Shown here: one piece after another, positions 2,739 to 14,304 of the stretch | How the letters are laid out: each line of letters opens with the position of its first letter | Position numbering within the stretch: position 1 is the first letter of the stretch | Source of the DNA: Candidatus Omnitrophota bacterium | GTDB taxonomy: Bacteria > Omnitrophota > Gorgyraeia > Duberdicusellales > 4484-171 | Assembly (NCBI GenBank): GCA_021735655.1 | Contig: JAIPGM010000006.1 | Span: 32,001-96,000 of the forward strand | Length of the DNA stretch: 64,000 nt | Reading direction: 5' to 3' | The notes under the pieces: generated by a model | Database searches by the model: none | What the model saw: only the letters and a program-made list of their open reading frames with translations | Told to the model about the DNA's origin: nothing | Made by a program: the position numbers and the translations under genes

Positions 2739-3884
2739 TTATTTGCGTTTTAGTAGACTCAAAACCTCAAGATGCGGGGTATGGGGAAAAAAGTCAAAAG
2801 GCTCAATAAAATCAATGCTATATTGATCGCTGAGGCCTTTTAAATCAATGAAAAGAGCGGTTGGGTTACAAGAAGAATAAATAATTTCCTTAGGCTCTAG
2901 GCGCAAAATGGCCCGAATGATCTTTTTAGAAAGACCAGAACGAGGTGGGTTTACGACTAGAAGGTCTACATCCCTATAAAAAATACCTTGAGTATTCAAA
3001 AACTTACGAACATCGGAAGTAAAAAAAGAAATATTATCAATATGGTTTAATTTAGCATTTTGCCAAGCCAAATCGACTATCTCCTTAACTACCTCAACCC
3101 CCCAAACAAACTTTGCTTGATTGGCAAGATGAATACCGATAGATCCTAAACCGCAAAAAAGATCTAATACTCTCTTGTCTTTAGAAAGACCCCCATAACT
3201 AACAAGCTTCTTATAAAAGTCAGCAATCATTCGAGGGTTTACCTGGAAAAAAGTATCAATCCCAATTTTAAATCTGAAATCTCCCAATCTTTCCTCCAAG
3301 AACTCATCGCCAAACAATAGTTCTTTTTTATCAAAAATAACCGCATCACTTAAAGAATCATTAATAATCCAATAAATAGACTTTATTTTTGACTTTAATT
3401 TTAATTTATTTAGTTCATCAATAAAGCTTTGTGAATTTAATTCTTCGCTACTGGAAGTAACCAAACCGACCATTAGCTGATTGGTAAATTTAGTTTCCCG
3501 AACTATCAAATTTCTTAAAAAACCTTTATGAGAATATTTATCATAAACAGAATGCTTATTATCTTTTAAAAAATATTTAATCGCCTCTAGAATTAGTCTT
3601 AAATCGGATGAGAAAATTAAACACTCCTCCAAATCAACAACTCTTCTCTTTTTATCCTTGCTATACAAGCCGCAAACGACACCTCTCTCGTAACCAAAGC
3701 TAAACTCCATTTTGTTACGATAATACCACTGCTCTGAAGAATTGATTGGCTTTAACTGAGTAGATAGCTCTGAAAGTTCAAGTAAGCCTTTAACTCTAGC
3801 TTCTTTAGTTTCAAGCTGTTGTTGGTAAGGAATATCTTGAAAGCGACAACCGCCACATTCAGAAAAATGTTTACAAATTTTCAT
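2739..3884 (-). CDS. RNA (uracil-5)-methyltransferase, RlmD/TrmA family with N-terminal Fe-S Cys cluster
   Basis: N-terminal CKHFSECGGCRFQ; SAM motif DLFCGLGSIG; C-terminal SSCNP catalytic motif. Confidence 0.7.
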   Translation of the reverse strand: MKICKHFSECGGCRFQDIPYQQQLETKEARVKGLLELSELSTQLKPINSSEQWYYRNKMEFSFGYERGVVCGLYSKDKKRRVVDLEECLIFSSDLRLILEAIKYFLKDNKHSVYDKYSHKGFLRNLIVRETKFTNQLMVGLVTSSSEELNSQSFIDELNKLKLKSKIKSIYWIINDSLSDAVIFDKKELLFGDEFLEERLGDFRFKIGIDTFFQVNPRMIADFYKKLVSYGGLSKDKRVLDLFCGLGSIGIHLANQAKFVWGVEVVKEIVDLAWQNAKLNHIDNISFFTSDVRKFLNTQGIFYRDVDLLVVNPPRSGLSKKIIRAILRLEPKEIIYSSCNPTALFIDLKGLSDQYSIDFIEPFDFFPHTPHLEVLSLLKRK

Positions 3885-4375
3885 TTTATTATTAGACTTT
3901 TGAGTTTTTTTCTTTTAGTCAGTCGAGGATAAGAAACAGGAGCGCCTAAAGCTATAACCGCTTCTAGCTCAAGGTTAGGCCTTAACTTAAGATATTTATG
4001 AACCTTTTTCTTTTGATTAAGAATCTCACCTAGCCAGCAGGCGCCTAACTTTTTAGAATGAATACAAAGTAATATGTTTTGAATACAAGAACCAATGGCC
4101 ATTAGATCTTTCTCATAATTATAAGAGGTCTTCTTATCTAAAAATACTAAAATAAGTTTATCGGCTGATTTGATAATATGACCATAATGAGTAAAAACAG
4201 CCAAAGCATCCTTTTTCTCCTTATCTAGAACCATAAACCGCCAGGGCTGGTTATTGAGTCCCGAAGGCGCCCAGCGACCAGCCTCTAAAATTTTGTTAAC
4301 CGTCTGCCTAGAAACAGCCCTCTTTTTAAACTTTCGCACTGACCTTCTATCTTTTATTAACCTTAACGCTCTCAT
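3881..4375 (-). CDS. nitroreductase family protein
   Basis: RRSVRKF...SGLNNQPWRF motifs of PF00881. Confidence 0.7.
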   Translation of the reverse strand: MRALRLIKDRRSVRKFKKRAVSRQTVNKILEAGRWAPSGLNNQPWRFMVLDKEKKDALAVFTHYGHIIKSADKLILVFLDKKTSYNYEKDLMAIGSCIQNILLCIHSKKLGACWLGEILNQKKKVHKYLKLRPNLELEAVIALGAPVSYPRLTKRKKLKSLIIK

Positions 4376-5699
4376 AGCTAGCTACTCCATTATTCTTATC
4401 GCTAAACCCTCTTTTATCATAAAGATTATCGAGCGGGCTTTCAGGGATATTTACCATATCCCTTAATATATGCGTATAAATCATTGTAGTTTCTACATGC
4501 TTATGCCCTAACAGTTCCTGGACTTCTCGAATATTAACCCCATTCATTAAAAGATGTGTTGCGAAGCTATGCCTGAGAGTATGCACGCTGGCGCGTTTTA
4601 TAATTCCGGCTTTCTTTACCGCAATAGCTACAATCTTTTGAACTGTATTGGGACTTATATGATGTCTTCGGATTTTACCACTCCTAGGATCAATTGAAAG
4701 TCGAGAAGATGGAAAAGCATACTGCCACCCCCACTCCTTAGCAGCTTTAGAATATTTGTGCTCTAAAGCATTCGGTAGATATACCTCTCCATAACCGGCA
4801 GCTTTATCTTCTTCGAAAATATTCTTAACTTGCTCTAAATGTTTTCTGAGAGAACTACCTAACGCCTGTGGCAGCATAGTGCTACGGTCTTTATCCCCTT
4901 TTGCTCCGCGTAAAAATAAAATATTGCTCTCAAAATCAATATCCTGCACTCGCAAGCGCACGAGCTCCATAAGCCGCAACCCTGAACCATAAAGCAATTG
5001 CACAATTAATAAATCTTTATTCCTTAGTTGTTCAAATAACCCTTGTATTTCCTTAACTGACAAAACTGTTGGTAATTTAGGGCCCCGCTTTGCGCGAACG
5101 GTTTCAGCTAAATTATTTACTTCTATTTTTAGAACATCTCGAAATAAAAATAAAAGTGCATTAAAGGCTTGGTTCTGGGTCGAAGATGAAACTCGACCCT
5201 CTATAGCTAGATATGTCAAATAATCTTTAACATCTTCTGGGGTTAGCTTCTGAGGATATATCTGCTTTCGCTTTCCTTTATTTAAATAATCAAAAAATCT
5301 CTTTGCCCATGTAACGTATGTCCTTTCTGTGCTATAAGAAAAATGCTTCACTCGAATGGCATTCGTCATTTTCTTTAACAAATCATCAAAATTAACATCT
5401 TCATCTTTAAATCTAGATACTTCGACAGATTTAATCTTATAAATTTGAGGTGGAGCAAAATTGTCTACATATATACTTATCGCTTCTTTGGCCTGCTGAA
5501 ATTGCCACTCTTCAATTTTTATAATCTTTAGCTTTTCAAAAAACTTTTCTTTCTGTTCCTCAAGTGATGATTTTGGACGAATACAACAGAATTTAAGAAA
5601 TCTATCTACCCAATAGGCATAAAAAGGGGCTGTTTTTTCTGTAGCTAATTTCTTTGAAATTAAAAATCTTTGAAATTGAGATAACACACCTATTTTCAT
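4347..5699 (-). CDS. intI: integron integrase IntI (tyrosine recombinase); ORF has an N-terminal extension, alternative start near 5369
   Basis: C-terminal catalytic region HTLRHSFATHLL...LLGH...TTMIYTH. Also the IntI-specific additional domain ALEHKYSKAAKEWGWQYAFPS...DPRSGKIRRHH (compare IntI1 ALERKYPRAG..W.W..VF....DPRSG.VRRHH). Transcribed divergently from the cassette array. Confidence 0.9.
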   Translation of the reverse strand: MKIGVLSQFQRFLISKKLATEKTAPFYAYWVDRFLKFCCIRPKSSLEEQKEKFFEKLKIIKIEEWQFQQAKEAISIYVDNFAPPQIYKIKSVEVSRFKDEDVNFDDLLKKMTNAIRVKHFSYSTERTYVTWAKRFFDYLNKGKRKQIYPQKLTPEDVKDYLTYLAIEGRVSSSTQNQAFNALLFLFRDVLKIEVNNLAETVRAKRGPKLPTVLSVKEIQGLFEQLRNKDLLIVQLLYGSGLRLMELVRLRVQDIDFESNILFLRGAKGDKDRSTMLPQALGSSLRKHLEQVKNIFEEDKAAGYGEVYLPNALEHKYSKAAKEWGWQYAFPSSRLSIDPRSGKIRRHHISPNTVQKIVAIAVKKAGIIKRASVHTLRHSFATHLLMNGVNIREVQELLGHKHVETTMIYTHILRDMVNIPESPLDNLYDKRGFSDKNNGVASYESVKVNKR

Positions 5700-5878
5700 G
5701 ACTTTTCTTTCTTTGCCATAAATCCAATGATATACATAATATACATTTCCTGATATTATAGATAAATTACATAATTAAAGCAACATTTTTCTTCCAAAAT
5801 CATTAAAAACATGCTAAAATTTTACTATATATATCAATAAAATATAAAAACATATATTATGCATATTAATTGTTAGAT
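5700..5878 (+). promoter_or_regulatory. attI recombination site plus putative cassette promoter Pc (TTGCCA 5713..5718, 17-bp spacer, ATAATA 5736..5741)
   Basis: AT-rich 200-bp intI-proximal spacer ending in GTTAGAT (5872..5878), identical to the core site closing attC5. The promoter hexamers were read by eye in an AT-rich background, so the promoter call is weak. Confidence 0.45.
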
Positions 5879-5905: not shown

Positions 5906-7189
5906 ATGAAGCAAATTTTGCGCTATTTTTTGGTTTTCTTTTCCCTAATTATATTTTTAAATTTATCTCCTTTTGCTTTTGGACAACAGGACCAATCCTC
6001 CGGTGATTTTATTGATGGGAATTTTGAAGAAATAGGTCGTCTCAAGAAAGATTCTCAGAAACTTGATACCAGTAAAACCGGCGATCTGTTTATGGATACA
6101 TGGATGGGGATATTAACTAGCCCAAAAGAATTTTTTTCTTGGAATACAAAAGGCGATGTCAAACTGGTCTATGATGGGAGTAACACACTGGTTGAATTGA
6201 CACAGAGTAAAGAAGGGCCTGCGTCTATAAGCCAATTCTTTGGTTTTAAAAATAAAGATGCGTCAATTGAGTTTGATGTTAAAATTATAAAGAAAACTAC
6301 CTCAGATGAATTAGAAGTGACAGTAGCAGATGTGGGTGGGCCTGCCTGGGGTAAACCCCCTGCAATAGAGATTCCGCTGGAGACATTTCGGCTCTCAACC
6401 ATTTATCCGACTAAACATATCTCCATTGACCTTTCAAATAGTAAATATTTTTTAGATAAACAAGCTAAAGATGAAGCTAATGATATGGACTTAGTTGATG
6501 CATCTATTTTTGGTACGATAACTTTTCGCTTGAAGGGAAATGCTGAAGAACCAACAACAATACGATTGGATAACCTTAAGGTTACTTATTATAAAAAAGA
6601 AGGCGAAGTGAAACGTTATTATAAAGATAATCAGCCGAAGATAGATAAATTCTATAAAGATGGTAAGCAGGAAGGTCTGGAGAAGCGTTATTATCGCAAT
6701 GGACAGTTACAGTCGGAGCACCCATATAGGAATGGTAAACTAGACGGGATACAAAAGTATTATGCTATAGATGGAAAAGTCTGGGAAGAAACGCCTTACA
6801 GAGACGGCAAGCGAGAGGGAACACAAAGACGTTACAGAAATGGGGTGCTGACGGAAGAAAGATTATATAAAAATGATAAGATGGTAGAAATTAAAATTTA
6901 TTATAAAACTGGTGAAATAAAATCAGAAGCAACGATTAGGAATGATAAGACAGAAGGGTCATCTAAAGAGTATTATAAAAATGGACAAGTAATGGAAGAA
7001 CGTATCTATAGCGATAGCCAGAGAGTAGGCGTAACAAAGCATTACTATGCTAACGGACAGCTAAAAGCAGAGATACCTTACAAGAAGGATAGAAAAGATG
7101 GCATTGCGAGGATTTATAATGAAGAAGGCAACTTAGTAAAAGAAGAAGTTTGGGAAAAAGATAAACTCATAAGTACTAGAGAGAAATAA
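5906..7189 (+). CDS. cassette 1: secreted protein with N-terminal domain and about 9 tandem YwqK/MORN-variant repeats
   Basis: Signal peptide; repeats YYKDNQ.., YYRNGQLQSEHPYRNGKLDG, KYYAIDGKV.EETPYRDGKREG etc.; strong RBS AAAAGGAG. Confidence 0.8.
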   Translation: MKQILRYFLVFFSLIIFLNLSPFAFGQQDQSSGDFIDGNFEEIGRLKKDSQKLDTSKTGDLFMDTWMGILTSPKEFFSWNTKGDVKLVYDGSNTLVELTQSKEGPASISQFFGFKNKDASIEFDVKIIKKTTSDELEVTVADVGGPAWGKPPAIEIPLETFRLSTIYPTKHISIDLSNSKYFLDKQAKDEANDMDLVDASIFGTITFRLKGNAEEPTTIRLDNLKVTYYKKEGEVKRYYKDNQPKIDKFYKDGKQEGLEKRYYRNGQLQSEHPYRNGKLDGIQKYYAIDGKVWEETPYRDGKREGTQRRYRNGVLTEERLYKNDKMVEIKIYYKTGEIKSEATIRNDKTEGSSKEYYKNGQVMEERIYSDSQRVGVTKHYYANGQLKAEIPYKKDRKDGIARIYNEEGNLVKEEVWEKDKLISTREK

Positions 7190-7206
7190 ATATTAAATTA
7201 CCCATC

Positions 7207-7278
7207 TAACAAATCAATCCAGCCGACCCTCCCCGCGCGCTGGCGCGCTTGGTCGGGCGGCTGATTTTTGTGTTATCT
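7207..7278 (+). repeat. attC site 1
   Basis: CTAACAAATCAATCCAGCCGACC ... GGTCGGGCGGCTGATTTTTGTGTTATCT; imperfect palindrome, ends in core GTTATCT. Confidence 0.8.
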
Positions 7279-7284
7279 TAAAAA

Positions 7285-8109
7285 ATGAATCAAATACAAA
7301 TGATAATAAACATAGGAATAGGTGTAATATCTGGCTTAATAACCTTCATTGTATGTGAATACATTCTTAAACCATATCTAAACCAAAAAATAAATCCTAA
7401 AAAAGTTACTAATTTTTTTAGAAGTGGACCATTTTTGTTTGTCTTGGCTGTCCTGATTGCTTTTATCTTAAGTGCCTCCAACCAACAACTGAGAATGACA
7501 TTATTTGGCCATGGCTTAGGCTCTTCTACTGTCGTTAGGGAATTAGAAAATTTATATATGTCAATTCCCGAAATGAAGGATGAAATAATTAAATCATCTG
7601 AGGGAAAGTTAAAGGAAAAAGATTTAATTAACTTGTGTCTGCAAGAAAAATTATATTATTTGAAATTAAAGCAAACCGGGAAATATTCCTACAAACAAAA
7701 TAACGCAAAGGAAGCTATTAATTTTTCAGGCAATCATAAAGTATTGTATCCGAATAGTCAGATTTACTCTGAAACAACATATACAAATGGCGAACGTTTA
7801 GATGCAAATTTTAAAGCTTATTATTACAATGGGGTCATTAGAGCAGAAATTATAACCGACAAATCTCAAATGAACGACACCACGAAAATTGTAAAATATT
7901 ATTACAACAACGGCAAAATATGGTGCGAATATAGATATCACGACAACAAACACATGACTGGTATTATTTATGACAAGGAAGGTAATATACTAGGTAAAGG
8001 AAAAGGTCTTTTTCTAGCAATTCTTATACCTGGTTATTTTGAAAAAATCGAAAGACAAGTTTACGACGTGCGCTACAATCCAAATACATTTTATGATTAT
8101 GGATTATGA
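7285..8109 (+). CDS. cassette 2: membrane-anchored protein with YwqK/MORN-variant-like repeats
   Basis: N-terminal TM segments; C-terminal YYYNGVIRAE, KYYYNNGKIWCEYRYHDNKHMTG repeats. Confidence 0.7.
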   Translation: MNQIQMIINIGIGVISGLITFIVCEYILKPYLNQKINPKKVTNFFRSGPFLFVLAVLIAFILSASNQQLRMTLFGHGLGSSTVVRELENLYMSIPEMKDEIIKSSEGKLKEKDLINLCLQEKLYYLKLKQTGKYSYKQNNAKEAINFSGNHKVLYPNSQIYSETTYTNGERLDANFKAYYYNGVIRAEIITDKSQMNDTTKIVKYYYNNGKIWCEYRYHDNKHMTGIIYDKEGNILGKGKGLFLAILIPGYFEKIERQVYDVRYNPNTFYDYGL

Positions 8110-8125
8110 GAAAATTAATAAAAGA

Positions 8126-8195
8126 TAACAAAGCAATCCAGCGGACCAATTCCGCCGCTTCGCGGCTCCATTGGCCGCTGATTTCTATGTTAGAC
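8126..8195 (+). repeat. attC site 2
   Basis: ATAACAAAGCAATCCAGCGGACC ... GGCCGCTGATTTCTATGTTAGAC. Confidence 0.8.
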
Positions 8196-8222
8196 ATAAA
8201 AAAATAGAAAATAAGGAGAAAA

Positions 8223-9077
8223 ATGAAAATAAAAGCAAAGGAGCCGTGGTTGGCAGTTTTCTTGAATCGCTTGTTGCCCGGATTAGGGTATCTTTACACG
8301 AAGAATTTAGTTAGAGCAATTATTGTATTTTTAGTCACCATATCATTAACGTTTATTGCAGTTTCGACATTGATCGCTTTTGCCAAAAACGATACGACTG
8401 TTACATCCAAAGTATTATGGGGAGTCATTATTTTTGTTGCAGTCAATTTTATATTTAATTTCGCTATCTTGATAGATGGGTATTTGTGTGCAAGGAAACA
8501 TAATCTTTCTAATGACGTAAAGCCTTCGCGCATGGGGCTTCGTATTTTTGCTATCATTGGAACTATAGTTTTATTGTTAACTGGAGGTATCTCTATTTTT
8601 CCGGTTATCTACATAAGAACTCATTTGATACAGTTTTTTAAAATGCCTACCACATCAATGGCTCCAGCGCTAAAACTTAATGATAAAATCATGGTAGATA
8701 AAAAAGCATACAATAGCAATAAGCCACAAAGAATGGAGATAGTTGTATTTCTTCCTCCTCACGATAATAGAAAGTATTACCTGAAGAGAATTATTGGTTT
8801 ACCAGGAGAAGAAGTGGAAATCAAGGACGGCAAGGTTTATATAAACAACGAGGTCATAACTAATCTATTCGTGACAAATAACTATTATTATAATCAGGGT
8901 GATTACGCCAAAAAAGGTAAAAAGATAATCGTGCCCCCAAATAATTATTATGTTTTAGGCGACAATAGCGTTTCAAGTTTGGACAGTAGATTCTTTGGAT
9001 TTGTTCCCGAAAAAAATATAACAGGAAAAGTAGTTAAAATATATTGGCCTCCTGAAAGATCAGGAAGAGTTAAATAA
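8223..9077 (+). CDS. cassette 3: signal peptidase I (S26) with about 130-aa N-terminal polytopic membrane extension
   Basis: Catalytic Ser box PTTSMAPAL, Lys box YYLKRIIGLPGEEVEIKDGKVYINNE, box E VLGDNSVSSLDSRFFGFV; RBS AAGGAG. Confidence 0.8.
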   Translation: MKIKAKEPWLAVFLNRLLPGLGYLYTKNLVRAIIVFLVTISLTFIAVSTLIAFAKNDTTVTSKVLWGVIIFVAVNFIFNFAILIDGYLCARKHNLSNDVKPSRMGLRIFAIIGTIVLLLTGGISIFPVIYIRTHLIQFFKMPTTSMAPALKLNDKIMVDKKAYNSNKPQRMEIVVFLPPHDNRKYYLKRIIGLPGEEVEIKDGKVYINNEVITNLFVTNNYYYNQGDYAKKGKKIIVPPNNYYVLGDNSVSSLDSRFFGFVPEKNITGKVVKIYWPPERSGRVK

Positions 9078-9087
9078 TAAAAATGTC

Positions 9088-9168
9088 TAACAAGTCGATC
9101 CAGCGGACTTAAAAGCGCCGCCAATTAAAGCGCAAAGCGCTTTTAAGCCGCTGATCTTGATGTTATGA
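9088..9168 (+). repeat. attC site 3
   Basis: TCTAACAAGTCGATCCAGCGGAC ... AAGCCGCTGATCTTGATGTTATGA. Confidence 0.8.
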
Positions 9169-9178
9169 GAAAAATAAA

Positions 9179-9676
9179 ATGAAAAAAATAAATAAAATTT
9201 TCTTTGTTTTAATTTGCGTTCTTTGTTCTGCGCAATTAGCACTTTATGCAGAATATAATTCAACCCTCTTAAAACATCATATACAATTTTCTCCACCTAC
9301 CGGTTGGAATCAAATTTCACTTGGCCCTTTTGCCGCAGATATAGAAGGAATTGCATTCCGCAGCCCTGATGAGAAAGCGGTAATTACCGTATCCTTGCCC
9401 AAAAAAACTAATTTTATTTCGTTTCATGGTGCTCTTATATTATTTCGTTTAAGCAAAAGGCCAAAGGAAGAAAAAATAACATTTTGTGATGAGTCATGCT
9501 ATATTTTTGATTTTGAACAAATCAATAAAAATAATATAAAAGTACTGACAAAAACCTATAAATTTTTAAAGAAAAACAAACTATATACAATCAGCTATTA
9601 TTCATCTCCCAATGAATATCGACAGTATTTACCCGAATTTAAGAAGGCGTTAGCAACGTTTAAAATTATTGAATAA
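9179..9676 (+). CDS. cassette 4: secreted hypothetical protein (165 aa)
   Basis: Signal peptide MKKINKIFFVLICVLCSAQLALYA; no recognised domain. Confidence 0.6.
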   Translation: MKKINKIFFVLICVLCSAQLALYAEYNSTLLKHHIQFSPPTGWNQISLGPFAADIEGIAFRSPDEKAVITVSLPKKTNFISFHGALILFRLSKRPKEEKITFCDESCYIFDFEQINKNNIKVLTKTYKFLKKNKLYTISYYSSPNEYRQYLPEFKKALATFKIIE

Positions 9677-9684
9677 ATGTCTCA

Positions 9685-9766
9685 TAACAAAGCAATCGAG
9701 CGGACAATCCTCGCCGCTAAATAGAATTCGGGAAAGCTCGGCTTGCCACTCATTTTTATGTTAGAC
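9685..9766 (+). repeat. attC site 4
   Basis: ATAACAAAGCAATCGAGCGGACAATCC ... GCTTGCCACTCATTTTTATGTTAGAC. Confidence 0.75.
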
Positions 9767-9778
9767 GAAAATAAAAAA

Positions 9779-10318
9779 ATGATTAAAAAGATAATAGTAA
9801 TTATTTGTTTTAGTTGCATAATCTGTTTAAATTTAGCATATTCTAAATATGTTGACCCAGACGCGATTGTTAGGATAACACGCAAAATTACTCAAAGAAT
9901 TTACAAAGATATAATTTCAATTAAAGACGAGTATGAAGAATTGAAGGGTTTTGATGAAAACTTTTATGGTAAAGGGACGAGATTCCAATATCGCATAGTT
10001 AGTCCCACAATCGAATATATTTATTGTCCTGGTACATACAATCAATCTTATGAACGAGTTATGGAATTGTATTGCAACCCTCAACCCCCTGCTATTCATC
10101 TAAGGTTAGTATTCCTTAGCGCTCCTTGTGGCACAAACAAGTGCGACATAGTTAGCATTTGTCCGGATGGAATCGAAGCCCAAATTTATATCGAAGAAAT
10201 TGATCGTTATCTAATATTCAGTCAGCGTAGTGGAAATGCTGAGCTTGATACAAAACTTATGGAAATTTTCCGCAAACACACAAAAAAATACAAAACAAAA
10301 GAAATACCTTGGGAATAG
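9779..10318 (+). CDS. cassette 5: secreted Cys-rich hypothetical protein. Start set at the internal ATG (MIKKIIVI...) because the ORF-track start at 9743 lies inside attC4
   Basis: Signal peptide; ORF confined to the cassette. Confidence 0.55.
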   Translation: MIKKIIVIICFSCIICLNLAYSKYVDPDAIVRITRKITQRIYKDIISIKDEYEELKGFDENFYGKGTRFQYRIVSPTIEYIYCPGTYNQSYERVMELYCNPQPPAIHLRLVFLSAPCGTNKCDIVSICPDGIEAQIYIEEIDRYLIFSQRSGNAELDTKLMEIFRKHTKKYKTKEIPWE

Positions 10319-10325
10319 GCTCATC

Positions 10326-10398
10326 TAACAAGGCAATCCAGCGGACCTTACCTCGGCCCTAACGGGCTTCGGCAAGGCCGCTGATTTTTGTGTTAGAT
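10326..10398 (+). repeat. attC site 5
   Basis: CTAACAAGGCAATCCAGCGGACC ... AAGGCCGCTGATTTTTGTGTTAGAT. Confidence 0.8.
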
Positions 10399-10460
10399 GT
10401 AAAATGAGATCACTAGATGAAAAAAATATTTCTATTAACATGCTATTATAGGAGGGGTAT

Positions 10461-10805
10461 ATGAAAAAAATTTTATTGTGGATGGGTTTTATAATAAACC
10501 TTTTAGCATTCTTAGGTATTGCCTGCTATGGGTCATGGTCTGTTTGGGCTGGAATACTAAGCATTTCTAAATCAGAATATGCAAATATGTATATCGTTTT
10601 CGGAATAGTTCCTGTTTTAATAAGCATTCCTTTTAATATCTTTATGAATCTTTGCTTGAACTCAATTCTGGATAAGAAGAAAAGATTCCCAACAAAATGG
10701 GTTATTTTTTCCCAATCAATCATATTTATTTTGACACCAATCGCTCTACTTACTGGGATTGCAGATTTAATTTCAGATGCATGGAGTTTTTTTACACTGC
10801 GTTAG
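10461..10805 (+). CDS. cassette 6: small integral membrane protein (114 aa)
   Basis: 3-4 predicted TM helices; RBS GGAGG. Confidence 0.55.
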   Translation: MKKILLWMGFIINLLAFLGIACYGSWSVWAGILSISKSEYANMYIVFGIVPVLISIPFNIFMNLCLNSILDKKKRFPTKWVIFSQSIIFILTPIALLTGIADLISDAWSFFTLR

Positions 10806-10850
10806 ATACCGTGCAAGTAATTAAAATTATTTAGGAAATTAAAAAACTTC

Positions 10851-10925
10851 TAACAACTCAATCCAGCTGACCCTTTGACTCGGCCTTTCAGGCCTCGCTC
10901 AGGGCAGCTGATTTTTATGTTATGT
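10851..10925 (+). repeat. attC site 6
   Basis: CTAACAACTCAATCCAGCTGACC ... AGGGCAGCTGATTTTTATGTTATGT. Confidence 0.8.
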
Positions 10926-10967
10926 GAAAATAATAAAAACATTCTCGCACAAAAAAAGGAGGAGAAA

Positions 10968-11321
10968 ATGGACAAGAAAAAAACAGATTGGACAAAACCA
11001 AGCTTGATAATGCTCGGGATTGATGTTCTGGCGCTGTTCATTATGATGATCGTTTTGGGAAATCTTGTTAATAGATTTAATGAATTATACAGTCAATTCA
11101 GCATTGAATTATCACCTATTGCACAATTTAGCTTAACCGGATATAAAATATTTTTTCTACTGCTTTTAATTGGGCTTTTGGGCAAAGAGTTTTTGAAAAA
11201 TAAAAAGGCAACATTCATAATAAATATATCGGCACTAGCTGTTACCCTTTTTATATTTGTGCCTTTTATAATTTTAGGAATATTTTTTCCTTTGTTTAAC
11301 TTAACAAGCATGGGGGGATAA
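10968..11321 (+). CDS. cassette 7: small membrane protein. Start set at MDKKKTDW after RBS AAGGAGGAG because the ORF-track start at 10875 is inside attC6
   Basis: Hydrophobic helices; strong RBS directly upstream of 10968. Confidence 0.55.
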   Translation: MDKKKTDWTKPSLIMLGIDVLALFIMMIVLGNLVNRFNELYSQFSIELSPIAQFSLTGYKIFFLLLLIGLLGKEFLKNKKATFIINISALAVTLFIFVPFIILGIFFPLFNLTSMGG

Positions 11322-11344
11322 ATTTAAAAGTTTTAATAATCACA

Positions 11345-11516
11345 TAACAAGACAATTCAGCCAACCTTCATCCGTTGCCTGTTGGGTTGGCTGGTATGCC
11401 GAACCCTTCATAATAACAAAATGCTTCGCATTTTAAGTATATGGATTCGGCATAGTTCGACTAAGTATTTTTGCTCGCAAAAATGCCAGTCTCATTAGCT
11501 GATTTTTGTGTTATAG
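11345..11516 (+). repeat. attC site 7 (atypically long, about 170 bp)
   Basis: ATAACAAGACAATTCAGCCAACC ... CATTAGCTGATTTTTGTGTTATAG; centre contains extra inverted repeats. Confidence 0.65.
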
Positions 11517-11539
11517 GAAAATAAAACGGAGGAGTTAAG

Positions 11540-11812
11540 ATGGAAAATGTAAAAAAAATATATAAAGAAGGAGTAGTAAAGGGTGTTCGTTATTTTGTTA
11601 TTACATTATGGGTTAATTTTCTATGCATTCCGTTGTACATGATAAAAAATTTCTTTGAGCCAGAGCAGGGATGGAATTTTCAAGAACACACGTTATTAAT
11701 TATTGGTTTCTGTATTCTAGTTGTTGTATATTTACCATTTGCTGTTTATTTGGCATCGAAAAGATCAAACCAACTGAATACTCCTATATTGAAAACAAAT
11801 ATTTCGATATAA
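11540..11812 (+). CDS. cassette 8: small membrane protein (90 aa)
   Basis: RBS GGAGG; two TM helices. Confidence 0.5.
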   Translation: MENVKKIYKEGVVKGVRYFVITLWVNFLCIPLYMIKNFFEPEQGWNFQEHTLLIIGFCILVVVYLPFAVYLASKRSNQLNTPILKTNISI

Positions 11813-11819
11813 TATTTGT

Positions 11820-11892
11820 ATAACAAGGCAATCCACCTGACCATACTCGCCGCTTTTAGCGGCTCGTCTGGCCGGTGATTTTTGTGTTATGT
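11820..11892 (+). repeat. attC site 8
   Basis: TATAACAAGGCAATCCACCTGACC ... GGCCGGTGATTTTTGTGTTATGT. Confidence 0.8.
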
Positions 11893-11903
11893 GAATATAA
11901 AAT

Positions 11904-12476
11904 ATGAATAAAATTGACCTTTTATTTATAGTCTGTCTTCTAGCCTTACGTTTTCTACCTAGAAAATCAGCAAAATATAGATACTATTGGGTGTTTCCTT
12001 TATTAGTCTTTTTTTTAGCTATCGGTATCCGAATTAATTCTAAAATCGAGAGTCGGAAACGTTCAGAAAGAATTCAAGAGCTAGAAAGCAATCTTAACGC
12101 TTTGCGCGATTATAGCTCTATTGCAAAACTTAATATTTTAGGCTTACCTGCTCGTGCAGGTTCAGGCATAAAATTATCTACTCCAATTTCAACTTCGCTA
12201 GAGAATGCAATAATTGAAAAGGATGGCAAATATTTCCCCACGTGCAGCAAGGAAGCGGAAGAAAAATTTAAGCAGACTATAAAATCTTATCCACGATTTC
12301 CATTTTCATACTATGGCTTAGCCGTCTGTCTCAGGAGTAAAGAAGATGAAGCTTGGAAGGATTACGCAAATCAAGCCATAGAAATATTTAAAAAAACTAT
12401 CAGCATTAAAGATCATAATTCTGGGCACGACCAAGCAATGAAAGAATTAATCAGATATTTAGAAGAAATAAATTAA
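11904..12476 (+). CDS. cassette 9: hypothetical protein with N-terminal TM/signal anchor (190 aa)
   Basis: ORF confined to the cassette; no recognised domain. Confidence 0.55.
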   Translation: MNKIDLLFIVCLLALRFLPRKSAKYRYYWVFPLLVFFLAIGIRINSKIESRKRSERIQELESNLNALRDYSSIAKLNILGLPARAGSGIKLSTPISTSLENAIIEKDGKYFPTCSKEAEEKFKQTIKSYPRFPFSYYGLAVCLRSKEDEAWKDYANQAIEIFKKTISIKDHNSGHDQAMKELIRYLEEIN

Positions 12477-12496
12477 AACTAGGTAATTAAAACACA

Positions 12497-12575
12497 TAAC
12501 AAAGCAATCCACCTGACCCTCCTCGCGGCTTCCTGAGACCGCGGGCTCGTCGGGCAGGTGATTTTTGTGTTAGGA
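12497..12575 (+). repeat. attC site 9 (last detectable)
   Basis: ATAACAAAGCAATCCACCTGACC ... GGGCAGGTGATTTTTGTGTTAGGA. Confidence 0.8.
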
Positions 12576-12646
12576 GGTAAAAATTTACGCAAAATTTTCT
12601 TTCTTTGCCAAGATTAGAATGCTATAATTGTTTTTAGGAGATAACT

Positions 12647-13378
12647 ATGTTCTGGATTTGGATAATGATTATTATGATAGTAATGGCCGCTGGGGTTGTA
12701 ACCTTAGCTCTCCTGCCGACCTCTAAAGAATTGGCTTATTTAGAAAAATTACGAAAAATAGCTGATGATTTGCTTTATAGACTAAAAAACACCTTAAGAG
12801 AAGCCTGGAAAGAAAAGAAAAAACTTCCACTACCACTTGTAATTTTGGGGGCTGTCTGGATATTGAATGGCTTATATATAAGCATAAGTACTTTAATGAC
12901 CCCTTCTCAAATCACAAAACTAGAGACTCTAGCTGGTATATTCAGGATCTTAAGCATCGGTTGGATTATTATTGGGGTAACTTTATTTAACGGCTATATT
13001 TTAAGTAGAAAATTTGCCTTTATCGCCGCAGGAATAGTAATTAGCCTTGGTATTGCTGTTATTGCAGTACCACCGCTTACCCAAGAAGAATATCTTCTGC
13101 AACAATATGAAATATATCTACAAAATCAACAGTATCAACAAAATACTCTAGGAATTAATGAATATGTAACCTCGCGGCTGGTAGATCCTGGCGAAGGTAG
13201 GCCTACGAAAGCTGAGATAACCAAAGAACAAGCTATAGCTATAATCAATATGCTTATTGCCCTGATTACGATACTTTATCTAATTACTCCGAAAGCTAAA
13301 AAATATTTTGGTATCGAAAAGGAGCAATCTTTTTCATTTAAAGAGGGAATTGGTAGTTCATTTCGTCGCTACCGCTAA
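12647..13378 (+). CDS. integral membrane protein with Gln-rich segment; the distal ORF of the array with no downstream attC
   Basis: Multiple TM helices; stop codon overlaps the era stop (convergent). Confidence 0.5.
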   Translation: MFWIWIMIIMIVMAAGVVTLALLPTSKELAYLEKLRKIADDLLYRLKNTLREAWKEKKKLPLPLVILGAVWILNGLYISISTLMTPSQITKLETLAGIFRILSIGWIIIGVTLFNGYILSRKFAFIAAGIVISLGIAVIAVPPLTQEEYLLQQYEIYLQNQQYQQNTLGINEYVTSRLVDPGEGRPTKAEITKEQAIAIINMLIALITILYLITPKAKKYFGIEKEQSFSFKEGIGSSFRRYR

Positions 13379-14304
13379 TCCAACCAGTAGCCTAATTCTT
13401 TTAATATTCGAGGACGTTCTTGCCAATCTTTTAAAACTGTAACCCAAATATCTAAAAACACTTTCTTGCCATATATCTTTCCGATCTCAAGACGCGACTC
13501 AATTCCAACATTTTTAAGTATTTGGCCATTTTTACCGACAACTATTTTTTTCTGAGAATCCCTTTCTACATAAATATTCGCCTTTACGTATACGACCTTT
13601 TTTTTATCCTTTATTTCAGAAATCTCAACTGCCAAGGAATGCGGTAACTCCTCATCCAACTGTAAAAATAACTTTTCGCGTATTATGTCAGCAACCCTAA
13701 ATTTATCAGGAAAATCAGTTAAAGTCTTAACATCGTAATAAGCTTGAGCTACCGGCAAGATTTCCACCAAAACATCTCTCAACTTGTCGATATTTTTCCC
13801 AGTCTTAGCTGAAAGCGGAATATAATATTCTAAAAAACTATCCTTCCCAGCCTTCTTAGACTTCTCTTCCCACAAAGCCATATAATCATTAAGGAACTTT
13901 ACTCCTTTATCCACTTTGTTAAGCACAATTATGGTTTTTACTTTTTGAGTTGTGATAATTTTCATTAGGGTTTCCTCTTCCTGCCCGGGTTTGCGGGAAA
14001 GATCAACCACGTAAATTATTAAATCACACCCTTCAATAGATCTTTTAGCTATCGTATTAAGATGAGAGCTTAGTTTATCTTTAAACGAATGGATTCCCGG
14101 AGTATCGACAAAAATTGCCTGGGCATCTTTTAAATTCATAATTCCCCTTATTTGATGCCGAGTTGTCTGAGGAATGCTAGACATAATACTTATCTTATCC
14201 CCAACCAAAGCATTAAGGAGCGTTGACTTTCCTACATTCGGACGACCCAAAATTGCTATAAAACCTGATTTAAAATTTTTACTAATCATAGTTAATCCTT
14301 CCAA
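13375..14304 (-). CDS. era: GTPase Era
   Basis: G1 GRPNVGKST, G3 DTPG, NKVD; C-terminal KH domain. Confidence 0.9.
   Translation of the reverse strand: MEGLTMISKNFKSGFIAILGRPNVGKSTLLNALVGDKISIMSSIPQTTRHQIRGIMNLKDAQAIFVDTPGIHSFKDKLSSHLNTIAKRSIEGCDLIIYVVDLSRKPGQEEETLMKIITTQKVKTIIVLNKVDKGVKFLNDYMALWEEKSKKAGKDSFLEYYIPLSAKTGKNIDKLRDVLVEILPVAQAYYDVKTLTDFPDKFRVADIIREKLFLQLDEELPHSLAVEISEIKDKKKVVYVKANIYVERDSQKKIVVGKNGQILKNVGIESRLEIGKIYGKKVFLDIWVTVLKDWQERPRILKELGYWLD

Follow-up and report, generated by a model that had tools for sequence, protein, structure and literature searches.

An integron cassette of an Omnitrophota bacterium encodes a probable accessory signal peptidase I with an added membrane module

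A signal peptidase gene on cassette 3

We analysed a 64,000-nucleotide stretch (hereafter the window) of contig JAIPGM010000006.1 from a metagenome-assembled genome (MAG) of Candidatus Omnitrophota bacterium, GenBank assembly GCA_021735655.1, and focused on a signal peptidase I gene that lies there among the cassettes of an integron. Positions 8190–9162 of the window correspond to exactly one integron cassette (cassette 3, 973 bp, plus strand), the third after the integron integrase, with a single open reading frame (ORF) at 8223..9077 on the plus strand. The 284-residue product is identical to MCF7908348.1, which is annotated as 'signal peptidase I' and encoded on a contig of 100,490 bp, and is designated P0001 in our homologue set. 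Judging from sequence comparison, the gene is best read as a cassette-mobilised accessory paralogue of signal peptidase I that is probably active, a reading that we favour while leaving real room for doubt.

The window protein passed all sequence and fold tests for a type I signal peptidase (MEROPS S26A). It matched Pfam Peptidase_S26 (PF10502) over residues 123–275 (E = 5.8e-43, 147.2 bits, cut-off 22.9) and the NCBIfam model TIGR02227 for signal peptidase I (157.9 bits, cut-off 47). The compact S26 catalytic domain occupies residues 136–284 (8628..9074, plus strand). It contains Ser145 (codon TCA, 8655–8657) within TTSMAPAL and Lys188 (codon AAG, 8784–8786) within LKRIIGLPGE, both of which align with 78 short LepBs, and a box E (residues 246–257) in which GDNSVSSLDSR (residues 246–256) fits the pattern GDN..S.DSR, with the Ser, Asp and Arg of box E kept. 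An AlphaFold2 model calculated from a 61-sequence alignment (predicted local distance difference test (pLDDT) score 91.7, predicted template modelling score 0.81) displayed the S26 beta-fold, and the nearest solved structures by sequence were the compact Gram-positive enzymes 4nv4 and 4me8. Two other assignments were tried and rejected: a conjugative TraF peptidase (TIGR02771, 42.9 bits against a cut-off of 100.25) and a nickel superoxide dismutase maturation protease (score below the model cut-off).

The limits of the cassette were read from the sequence and run from the TT of the GTTAGAC core in the upstream attC (core at 8189–8195) to the G of the GTTATGA core in the downstream attC (core at 9162–9168). 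The upstream site, which is the attC of cassette 2 and forms the 5' boundary of cassette 3, spans 8123..8196 on the plus strand (covariance model R1 match 8119–8200, 81.2 bits, E = 3.7e-16; alignment A1). The attC of cassette 3 itself spans 9085..9167 on the plus strand (R1 match 9081–9173, 75.2 bits, E = 9.7e-15) and is also an exact match to the attC pattern. Model R1 was built from the eight attC copies of the window, which align well, are 72–83 bases long each and score 75–90 bits with it. The array repeat shows the classic attC layout (...TAACAA..ATCCAGCGGAC...GCCGCTGATTTTTGTGTTAGA), and the flanks of cassette 3 have paired R''/L'' and L'/R' cores in the same orientation as the rest of the array. 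A 24-base pattern taken from one attC copy matched six times in the window, with zero matches expected (none in 100 shuffles). The integrase gene, intI, is located at 4347..5699 on the minus strand; its product scored 395.7 bits with TIGR02249 (cut-off 265) and matched Pfam Phage_integrase together with a SAM-like domain. By these profile and covariance matches, the repeats that flank cassette 3 are real attC sites beside a true integron integrase.

The initial annotation of this DNA had described cassette 3 at 8190–9162 as carrying a complete S26 peptidase. Its coordinates coincide with the limits read from both attC cores, and the peptidase assignment is borne out by PF10502, TIGR02227, the motifs and the attC flanks; the motifs that it listed, SMAPAL, KRIIGLPGE and GDNSVSSLDSRF (box E), were all found and aligned with those of ordinary LepBs.

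The housekeeping LepB is a separate, short enzyme

A tblastn search detected no other S26 domain in the 64-kb window. This agrees with the possibility that the cassette gene is the sole housekeeping lepB of the genome and lies between repeats by chance. Several lines of evidence speak against it. The homologues include a short LepB of 188 residues, P0029 (MCF7907976.1), from a contig of 278,835 bp; its overall identity to P0001 is 47%, and BLASTP gave 48% for the catalytic domain. Its accession precedes that of the window protein by 372, and the accessions of the window follow gene order (MCF7908342 to MCF7908406). The locus tag of the cassette-4 protein, K9L86_05720, corresponds to about gene 1144 and makes the S26 gene approximately the 1143rd gene of its assembly. 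Because accessions are sequential and the gap of 372 is smaller than about 1143 genes, P0029 is placed in the same assembly, and this numbering indicates that the MAG very probably possesses a short LepB in addition to the cassette-encoded protein.

The second line of evidence came from a scan of GTDB, which covered one genome per species and used a chimera of P0029 and P0001 as the query; the MAG of the window is not among the GTDB representatives. LepBs resembling P0029 (59–83% identity) were found in 40 Omnitrophota species. Each of the 40 matches was a short LepB; no match to the long-form patterns was obtained in these one-per-species genomes. The short genes lie in a conserved core block, cmk-lepA-lepB-pgsA-plsY-recA, with lepA present at 35/40 loci and pgsA and plsY at 38/40 (L010–L049; for example, L020 5515–10848). 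This gene order identifies the short lepA-linked LepB as the housekeeping enzyme of the phylum. The window gene differs from it in both respects, encoding 284 residues within an attC array as opposed to about 188 residues within the core block.

With the flanking repeats being bona fide attC sites beside intI, we rejected the idea of a sole housekeeping lepB, which is contradicted by P0029, the core synteny and the attC/intI context and to which we assign next to no probability. The initial annotation had regarded the gene as an extra copy and had named, as the finding that would overturn this, a gene that is the only lepB of its genome and sits in relatives without attC sites. Neither part applies: P0029 is assigned to the same assembly by numbering, and the closest relatives of the gene adjoin attC sites.

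The N-terminal membrane module

Hydropathy analysis of the window protein gave three strong hydrophobic segments (residues 27–55, 59–90 and 101–133) and a weaker conserved one (9–26), and the AlphaFold2 model placed helices at residues 8–17/21–25, 29–55, 62–96 and 104–135. The last of these (8532..8627, plus strand) is, by hydropathy and in the model, an ordinary LepB-type anchor helix, and it aligns with the one helix that the short LepBs P0029, P0008 and P0024 have at their N-terminus. It is preceded by a TM2-like/DUF6677 module at residues 1–100 (8223..8522, plus strand) with helices at 8–25 (kinked at PGLG), 29–55 and 62–96 (pLDDT 87–98). An extension of about 130 residues with about four transmembrane helices, foreign to ordinary LepB, had been proposed earlier. 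That the extension is not part of LepB is upheld, and its size needs correction: because helix 104–135 is the counterpart of the single anchor of short LepBs in the alignment, the extension comprises about 100 residues and three helices.

A Lys/Arg-rich loop (residues 89–105, 4 K/R) precedes the anchor helix. Taken together, hydropathy, positive-inside charge counts and the modelled helices predict an S26 domain outside the cytoplasmic membrane, whether or not helix 8–25 spans it. The catalytic domain is thus predicted to face outwards, as a domain on the outer face of that membrane.

The module could be traced well beyond the cassette. With DUF6677, the window protein scored 17.7 bits, below the Pfam gathering cut-off of 24.3, and its relative P0005 passed the same cut-off with 28.9 bits; relatives also match DUF5683 and TM2. 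A phmmer search with residues 1–105 against 1.84 billion cluster representatives returned 259 matches at E ≤ 1e-3 (best 7.8e-16), and an S26 domain was present in 114 of the best 149 of these 259. A query of residues 1–128 alone matched cyanobacterial 'signal peptidase I' proteins (345–400 residues) at their N-termini, where the module occurs twice in tandem. Conserved in the module are the signature KEPW.AV.L...PG.G..Y and, towards the end of the third helix, one Asp and one Asn. Structure searches with the N-terminal module yielded generic helical matches and nothing specific. On the strength of the profile and phmmer matches, the extension is a TM2-like/DUF6677 module that recurs: an Omnitrophota clade has one copy of it, and many cyanobacterial proteins have two in tandem. 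The notion that it is peculiar to the cassette gene was not confirmed, as it recurs fused to S26 domains in both groups.

Loss of the catalytic dyad among long forms

We counted the catalytic residues in an alignment of 128 homologues, consisting of 79 short and 49 long forms. Both Ser and Lys were kept in 78/79 short forms and in only 14/49 long forms. In an independent set, found with the N-terminal module alone, 58/114 proteins kept both dyad residues. Where the dyad was lost, Ala, Gly or Thr usually stood in place of Ser, and Gln in place of Lys; box E and the Met and Pro of the SM.P motif were still aligned and conserved in these proteins. Proteins with a TM2-like module and an S26 domain that lack Ser and/or Lys include P0003, P0004, P0006, P0007, P0011 and about 90 others. 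The absence of one or both residues, which characterises SipA-like proteins, is thus seen in many relatives of the window protein and not in the window protein itself.

Several of these observations weigh against an active peptidase on cassette 3. Its catalytic activity is predicted from motifs, and most of its relatives lack the catalytic Ser or Lys, which weakens the assumption that the family acts as a protease. Among about 16 single-module forms, the dyad was kept only in P0001, P0002, P0005, P0165 and perhaps P0270. Within the Omnitrophota clade, the catalytic Ser was replaced by Ala in P0003, by Thr in P0004, by Gly in P0006 and by Thr in P0007, and P0011 has Ala/Ala; P0003 and P0004 are close relatives of the window protein. 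A comparison of P0002 (Ser) with P0003 (Ala) gave a nonsynonymous divergence (dN) of 0.14 and a synonymous divergence (dS) of 0.72 (dN/dS about 0.19) across both halves of the protein. With this ratio, the Ala variant is not simply decaying, and proteolysis may not be the selected function of the family. The accessory status of the gene has its own weak point, as the link between P0029 and the MAG comes from arithmetic on accession and locus-tag numbers.

These points give substance to a different reading, in which the protein is mainly a non-catalytic binding or assembly factor resembling a signal peptidase, like SipA of Streptococcus pyogenes. At the membrane, the groove of the S26 domain would bind signal peptides or particular exported proteins, and the intact dyad of the window protein would be ancestral or secondary. 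The loss of Ser or Lys is recurrent and independent in long forms and nearly absent in short ones, and since the losses are scattered on the tree, several separate losses are implied within the Omnitrophota clade. Purifying selection acts across the Ser/Ala pair, box E and the fold are conserved in dyad-less members, and in SipA there is a documented case of an inactive homologue on which pilus assembly depends (PMC4049620). Against this, Ser145 and Lys188 are intact in the window protein, as are Ser, Asp and Arg in its box E; its nearest sister on the tree, P0005, keeps the dyad, as does P0002. A conserved partner gene was not seen either: the cassette holds a single ORF, and the neighbours differ between arrays. 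For the window protein, we consider a mainly binding or chaperone-like role, with catalysis dispensable, unlikely, with enough in its favour to be taken seriously.

A broader proposal concerns the family as a whole. Fusions of a TM2-like module with an S26 domain might form a widespread, previously undescribed group of membrane 'pseudo-signal-peptidases' in Omnitrophota and cyanobacteria that bind signal peptides or exported partners and do not cleave them. About half of these fusions have lost the dyad, with purifying selection maintained. They would be traded as cassettes in Omnitrophota, with the window gene as a still-catalytic member. We put this forward tentatively, as a possibility with the odds against it.

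Proposed function of the cassette protein

If the favoured reading of an accessory, active paralogue is correct, housekeeping cleavage of signal peptides would be left to the separate short LepB. Cassette 3 would be transcribed from an integron promoter near attI, for which a consensus match exists at 5713–5740. The protein would insert with its S26 domain outside the membrane and, as an extra or specialised signal peptidase, might remove Ala-X-Ala-type signal peptides from some exported proteins in a Ser/Lys-dependent manner. The added membrane module would probably alter membrane positioning, partners or substrate range.

Signal peptidase is an essential, extracytoplasmic drug target, and an additional copy could also serve resistance by target replacement, with an inhibitor-insensitive signal peptidase standing in for the enzyme blocked by arylomycin-type lipopeptides. 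The dfrA cassettes of integrons, which supply a drug-insensitive dihydrofolate reductase, set a precedent for such logic. The known natural determinant of arylomycin resistance is a Pro seven residues before the catalytic Ser (Pro84 in E. coli); PDB entry 9nlo is a 'P84A' variant. By ungapped counting, this position is occupied by Phe138 in the window protein and by Ile31 in the core LepB P0029. With no Pro at this position, neither enzyme looks resistant, and the two do not differ in kind. The dyad-less relatives, moreover, could not replace an inhibited enzyme. The arylomycin-resistance variant was rejected for want of a Pro at position -7, and resistance in general seems highly improbable. 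An 'immunity' role, raised in the initial annotation, found no support, given the lack of Pro at the arylomycin-resistance position.

Origin and mobility of the gene

In a neighbour-joining tree of catalytic domains, the single-module long forms P0001–P0007 and P0011 formed a clade whose sister group was the short LepBs of Omnitrophota. Long forms from cyanobacteria fell among cyanobacterial enzymes, apart from the Omnitrophota clade. The base composition of the cassette (GC content 0.34; 0.33 at third codon positions) was close to that of the host, with core genes at 0.35–0.40 and 0.30–0.37, respectively, in line with an origin inside the phylum.

Members of the clade were found in different genomic settings. 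P0002 (locus L050, 63% identity to the window protein) has an attC of the same family (GTATAACAATTCAATCCAGCGGAC...) from 24 bases after its stop codon, and a truncated attC left half abuts its ribosome-binding site. P0003 (L008, 63% identity) lies directly after an attC match of 32.1 bits. P0004 (L007, 58% identity) is one of a row of co-directional small ORFs separated by a repeat family of their own, which is probably a cassette array. Two relatives are not cassettes: P0005 (L001, 48% identity) is an ordinary gene that lies between two ketoacyl-synthase genes and a gene for an acyl-carrier protein, and P0011 (L051, 35% identity) is followed by a plain terminator hairpin. P0006 (L004, 47–49% identity) overlaps a downstream 244-residue gene. 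The gene has thus been found in other arrays, with P0002 and P0003 flanked by attC sites of the same family, in the two or three cases recovered. Around these relatives, the neighbouring genes bear no relation to those of the window. A metagenome scan with the N-terminal alignment recovered only two distant relatives.

Since some clade members are ordinary chromosomal genes and others lie inside attC arrays, the simplest history would be the capture of a native Omnitrophota paralogue, which now circulates within the phylum as a cassette.

Some of these loci had further features. When the attC covariance model derived from the window was run on L004 and L007 with filters off, the best match scored 12.8 bits and nothing was convincing. 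The L007 repeats (2553–2620, 3310–3375 and 3905–3985; about 65–80 bases) read TAACACCC.AATCCC.GCTT.AGGGGAGAGATAAC...CTCTTAG.TGATAG and separate the co-directional small ORFs around P0004. One copy ends in an attC-like manner (...TTTTGCGTGTTAG), and the window-derived model misses these repeats. One ORF of the L007 array encodes a TIR-domain protein. Around P0005 (L001 8080–10536), the wider cluster also has AMP-ligase, cyclase, short-chain dehydrogenase/reductase and radical-SAM genes, has no attC sites and represents a single case. In L004 (3044–4619), P0006, in which Ser is replaced by Gly, overlaps by 8 bases the 244-residue gene, which had no Pfam match and is absent from the window cassette; the arrangement suggests that this gene is an operon partner of P0006.

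The integron array and its other products

Downstream of intI, the plus-strand array consists of co-directional small ORFs separated by the attC repeat and ends around position 12,575; the era gene lies beyond its end at 13375–14304. A GTTAGAT core at 5872..5878 (plus strand), 28 bases before the start codon of cassette 1, is the probable attI recombination point. A promoter consensus scan returned a candidate cassette promoter, Pc (TTGCCA-16-CATAAT), at 5713–5740. In cassette 3, a Shine-Dalgarno-like AAGGAG (8213..8218, plus strand) can be read 4 bases before the ATG. The intI ORF is 450 residues long, and the IntI profile begins at residue 107; the 106 residues before it are an N-terminal extension, or else the true start lies further into the ORF. 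At its 3' end, intI shares 29 bases with the next minus-strand gene, a nitroreductase (3881–4375).

Every cassette ORF of the array (5906–13378) opens with a signal peptide or one or more transmembrane segments. The products are two MORN-repeat proteins, several small multi-transmembrane proteins and others, all of them envelope or secreted proteins. The cassette-1 protein, of the MORN/YwqK family (5906–7189, 427 residues), occurs with an identical sequence under MBU2473129.1, MCF7908346.1 and MFH1362795.1. An atypical attC-like site at 11338–11521, between ORFs of 148 and 90 residues, is 184 bases long and scores only 37 bits; it may be degenerate or composite. A multi-transmembrane ORF of 243 residues (12647–13378) comes after the last attC (12494–12575). 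No attC follows it, and its last 4 bases overlap the stop of era, which is convergent with it. This ORF is either a terminal cassette minus its attC or a native flanking gene.

The composition of the array bears on the suggestion, made in the initial annotation, that the peptidase is dedicated to processing the secreted and membrane products of neighbouring cassettes. All cassette products carry a signal peptide or transmembrane segment at their start, and at least three (5906–7189, 9179–9676 and one ending at 10318) look like cleavable substrates of a type I signal peptidase. On the other side, cassettes are acquired independently, and the relatives in L008, L007 and L050 sit among unrelated neighbours in their own arrays. 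The host has its own LepB for such substrates, and nothing specific in the data links the peptidase to them. The suggestion is not favoured, and we judge it very unlikely.

Significance

In our literature search, we came across no paper that describes a type I signal peptidase on an integron cassette and none on Omnitrophota integrons. A search for TM2-domain/signal-peptidase fusions and for cyanobacterial LepB paralogues likewise found no description of the TM2-like/S26 architecture. The cassette 3 finding resolves no long-standing question. It does indicate that the integrons of an uncultured phylum of ultra-small cells move genes of envelope biogenesis as well as unknown small proteins. The more useful result is the pattern across the family, in which fused S26 proteins lose the dyad about half the time and ordinary LepBs almost never do, which yields a set of likely pseudo-enzymes. 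We consider this loss across the fused family the most interesting point of the analysis, and it lies outside what the initial annotation had observed. Annotations of 'signal peptidase I' for proteins with the TM2-like-module architecture should not be taken to mean active enzymes. The function of the fused family is open to study in tractable cyanobacteria.

Comparison with known systems

The catalytic part of the window protein is closest in type to the compact Gram-positive type I signal peptidases, namely the Bacillus subtilis SipS family, with the solved enzymes of B. anthracis (4nv4), Enterococcus faecalis (4me8) and Staphylococcus aureus (SpsB, 4wvg). It shares with them the S26 fold, boxes B to E and the Ser/Lys dyad. 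As in SipS-type enzymes, the large domain II known from E. coli LepB is missing, and the anchor helix comes directly before the catalytic domain. The window protein differs from them in having about 100 additional N-terminal residues with three helices, in not being the lepA-linked housekeeping copy and in being encoded by a cassette.

Signal peptidases that are extra or mobile have precedents, such as the plasmid-borne SipP of Bacillus. SipP of B. thuringiensis cleaves the anti-sigma factor RsiP (PMC8844934). PMC3321497, citing Marquez et al. 2008, mentions a class 2 integron with a cassette for a predicted signal peptidase of the lipoprotein type (type II). Along with the conjugative TraF peptidases, these are extra copies outside the core genome or with specialised substrates, as would be the cassette 3 gene. 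In contrast to the class 2 integron cassette peptidase, the window protein is of type I and not type II.

SipA/LepA of Streptococcus pyogenes (PDB 4n31, 4k8w) is an inactive signal peptidase homologue that is required for pilus polymerisation (PMC4049620). It sets an example of an S26 homologue that functions in the absence of the dyad, as must many of the proteins related to the window protein. The window protein itself differs from SipA in keeping Ser and Lys, in having no pilus or sortase context and in its membrane architecture.

The nearest counterparts in overall design are the cyanobacterial DUF5683/DUF6677 'signal peptidase I' proteins, for example, those of Leptolyngbya sp. FACHB-321 (P0031), Vacuolonema (P0012) and Coleofasciculus (P0044). 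They have the same order of module or modules, anchor and S26 domain, the module being homologous, and the catalytic dyad is often lost in them, as it is in the Omnitrophota relatives of the window protein. The cyanobacterial genes are ordinary chromosomal genes, and two of them, when compared, had no conserved neighbour genes in common. Their hosts are filamentous, and the proteins, at 345–400 residues, contain two tandem modules. Unlike that of the window protein, their S26 domains group with cyanobacterial LepBs; with the two sets of catalytic domains grouping separately, there may have been two independent fusion events, or a transfer of the module.

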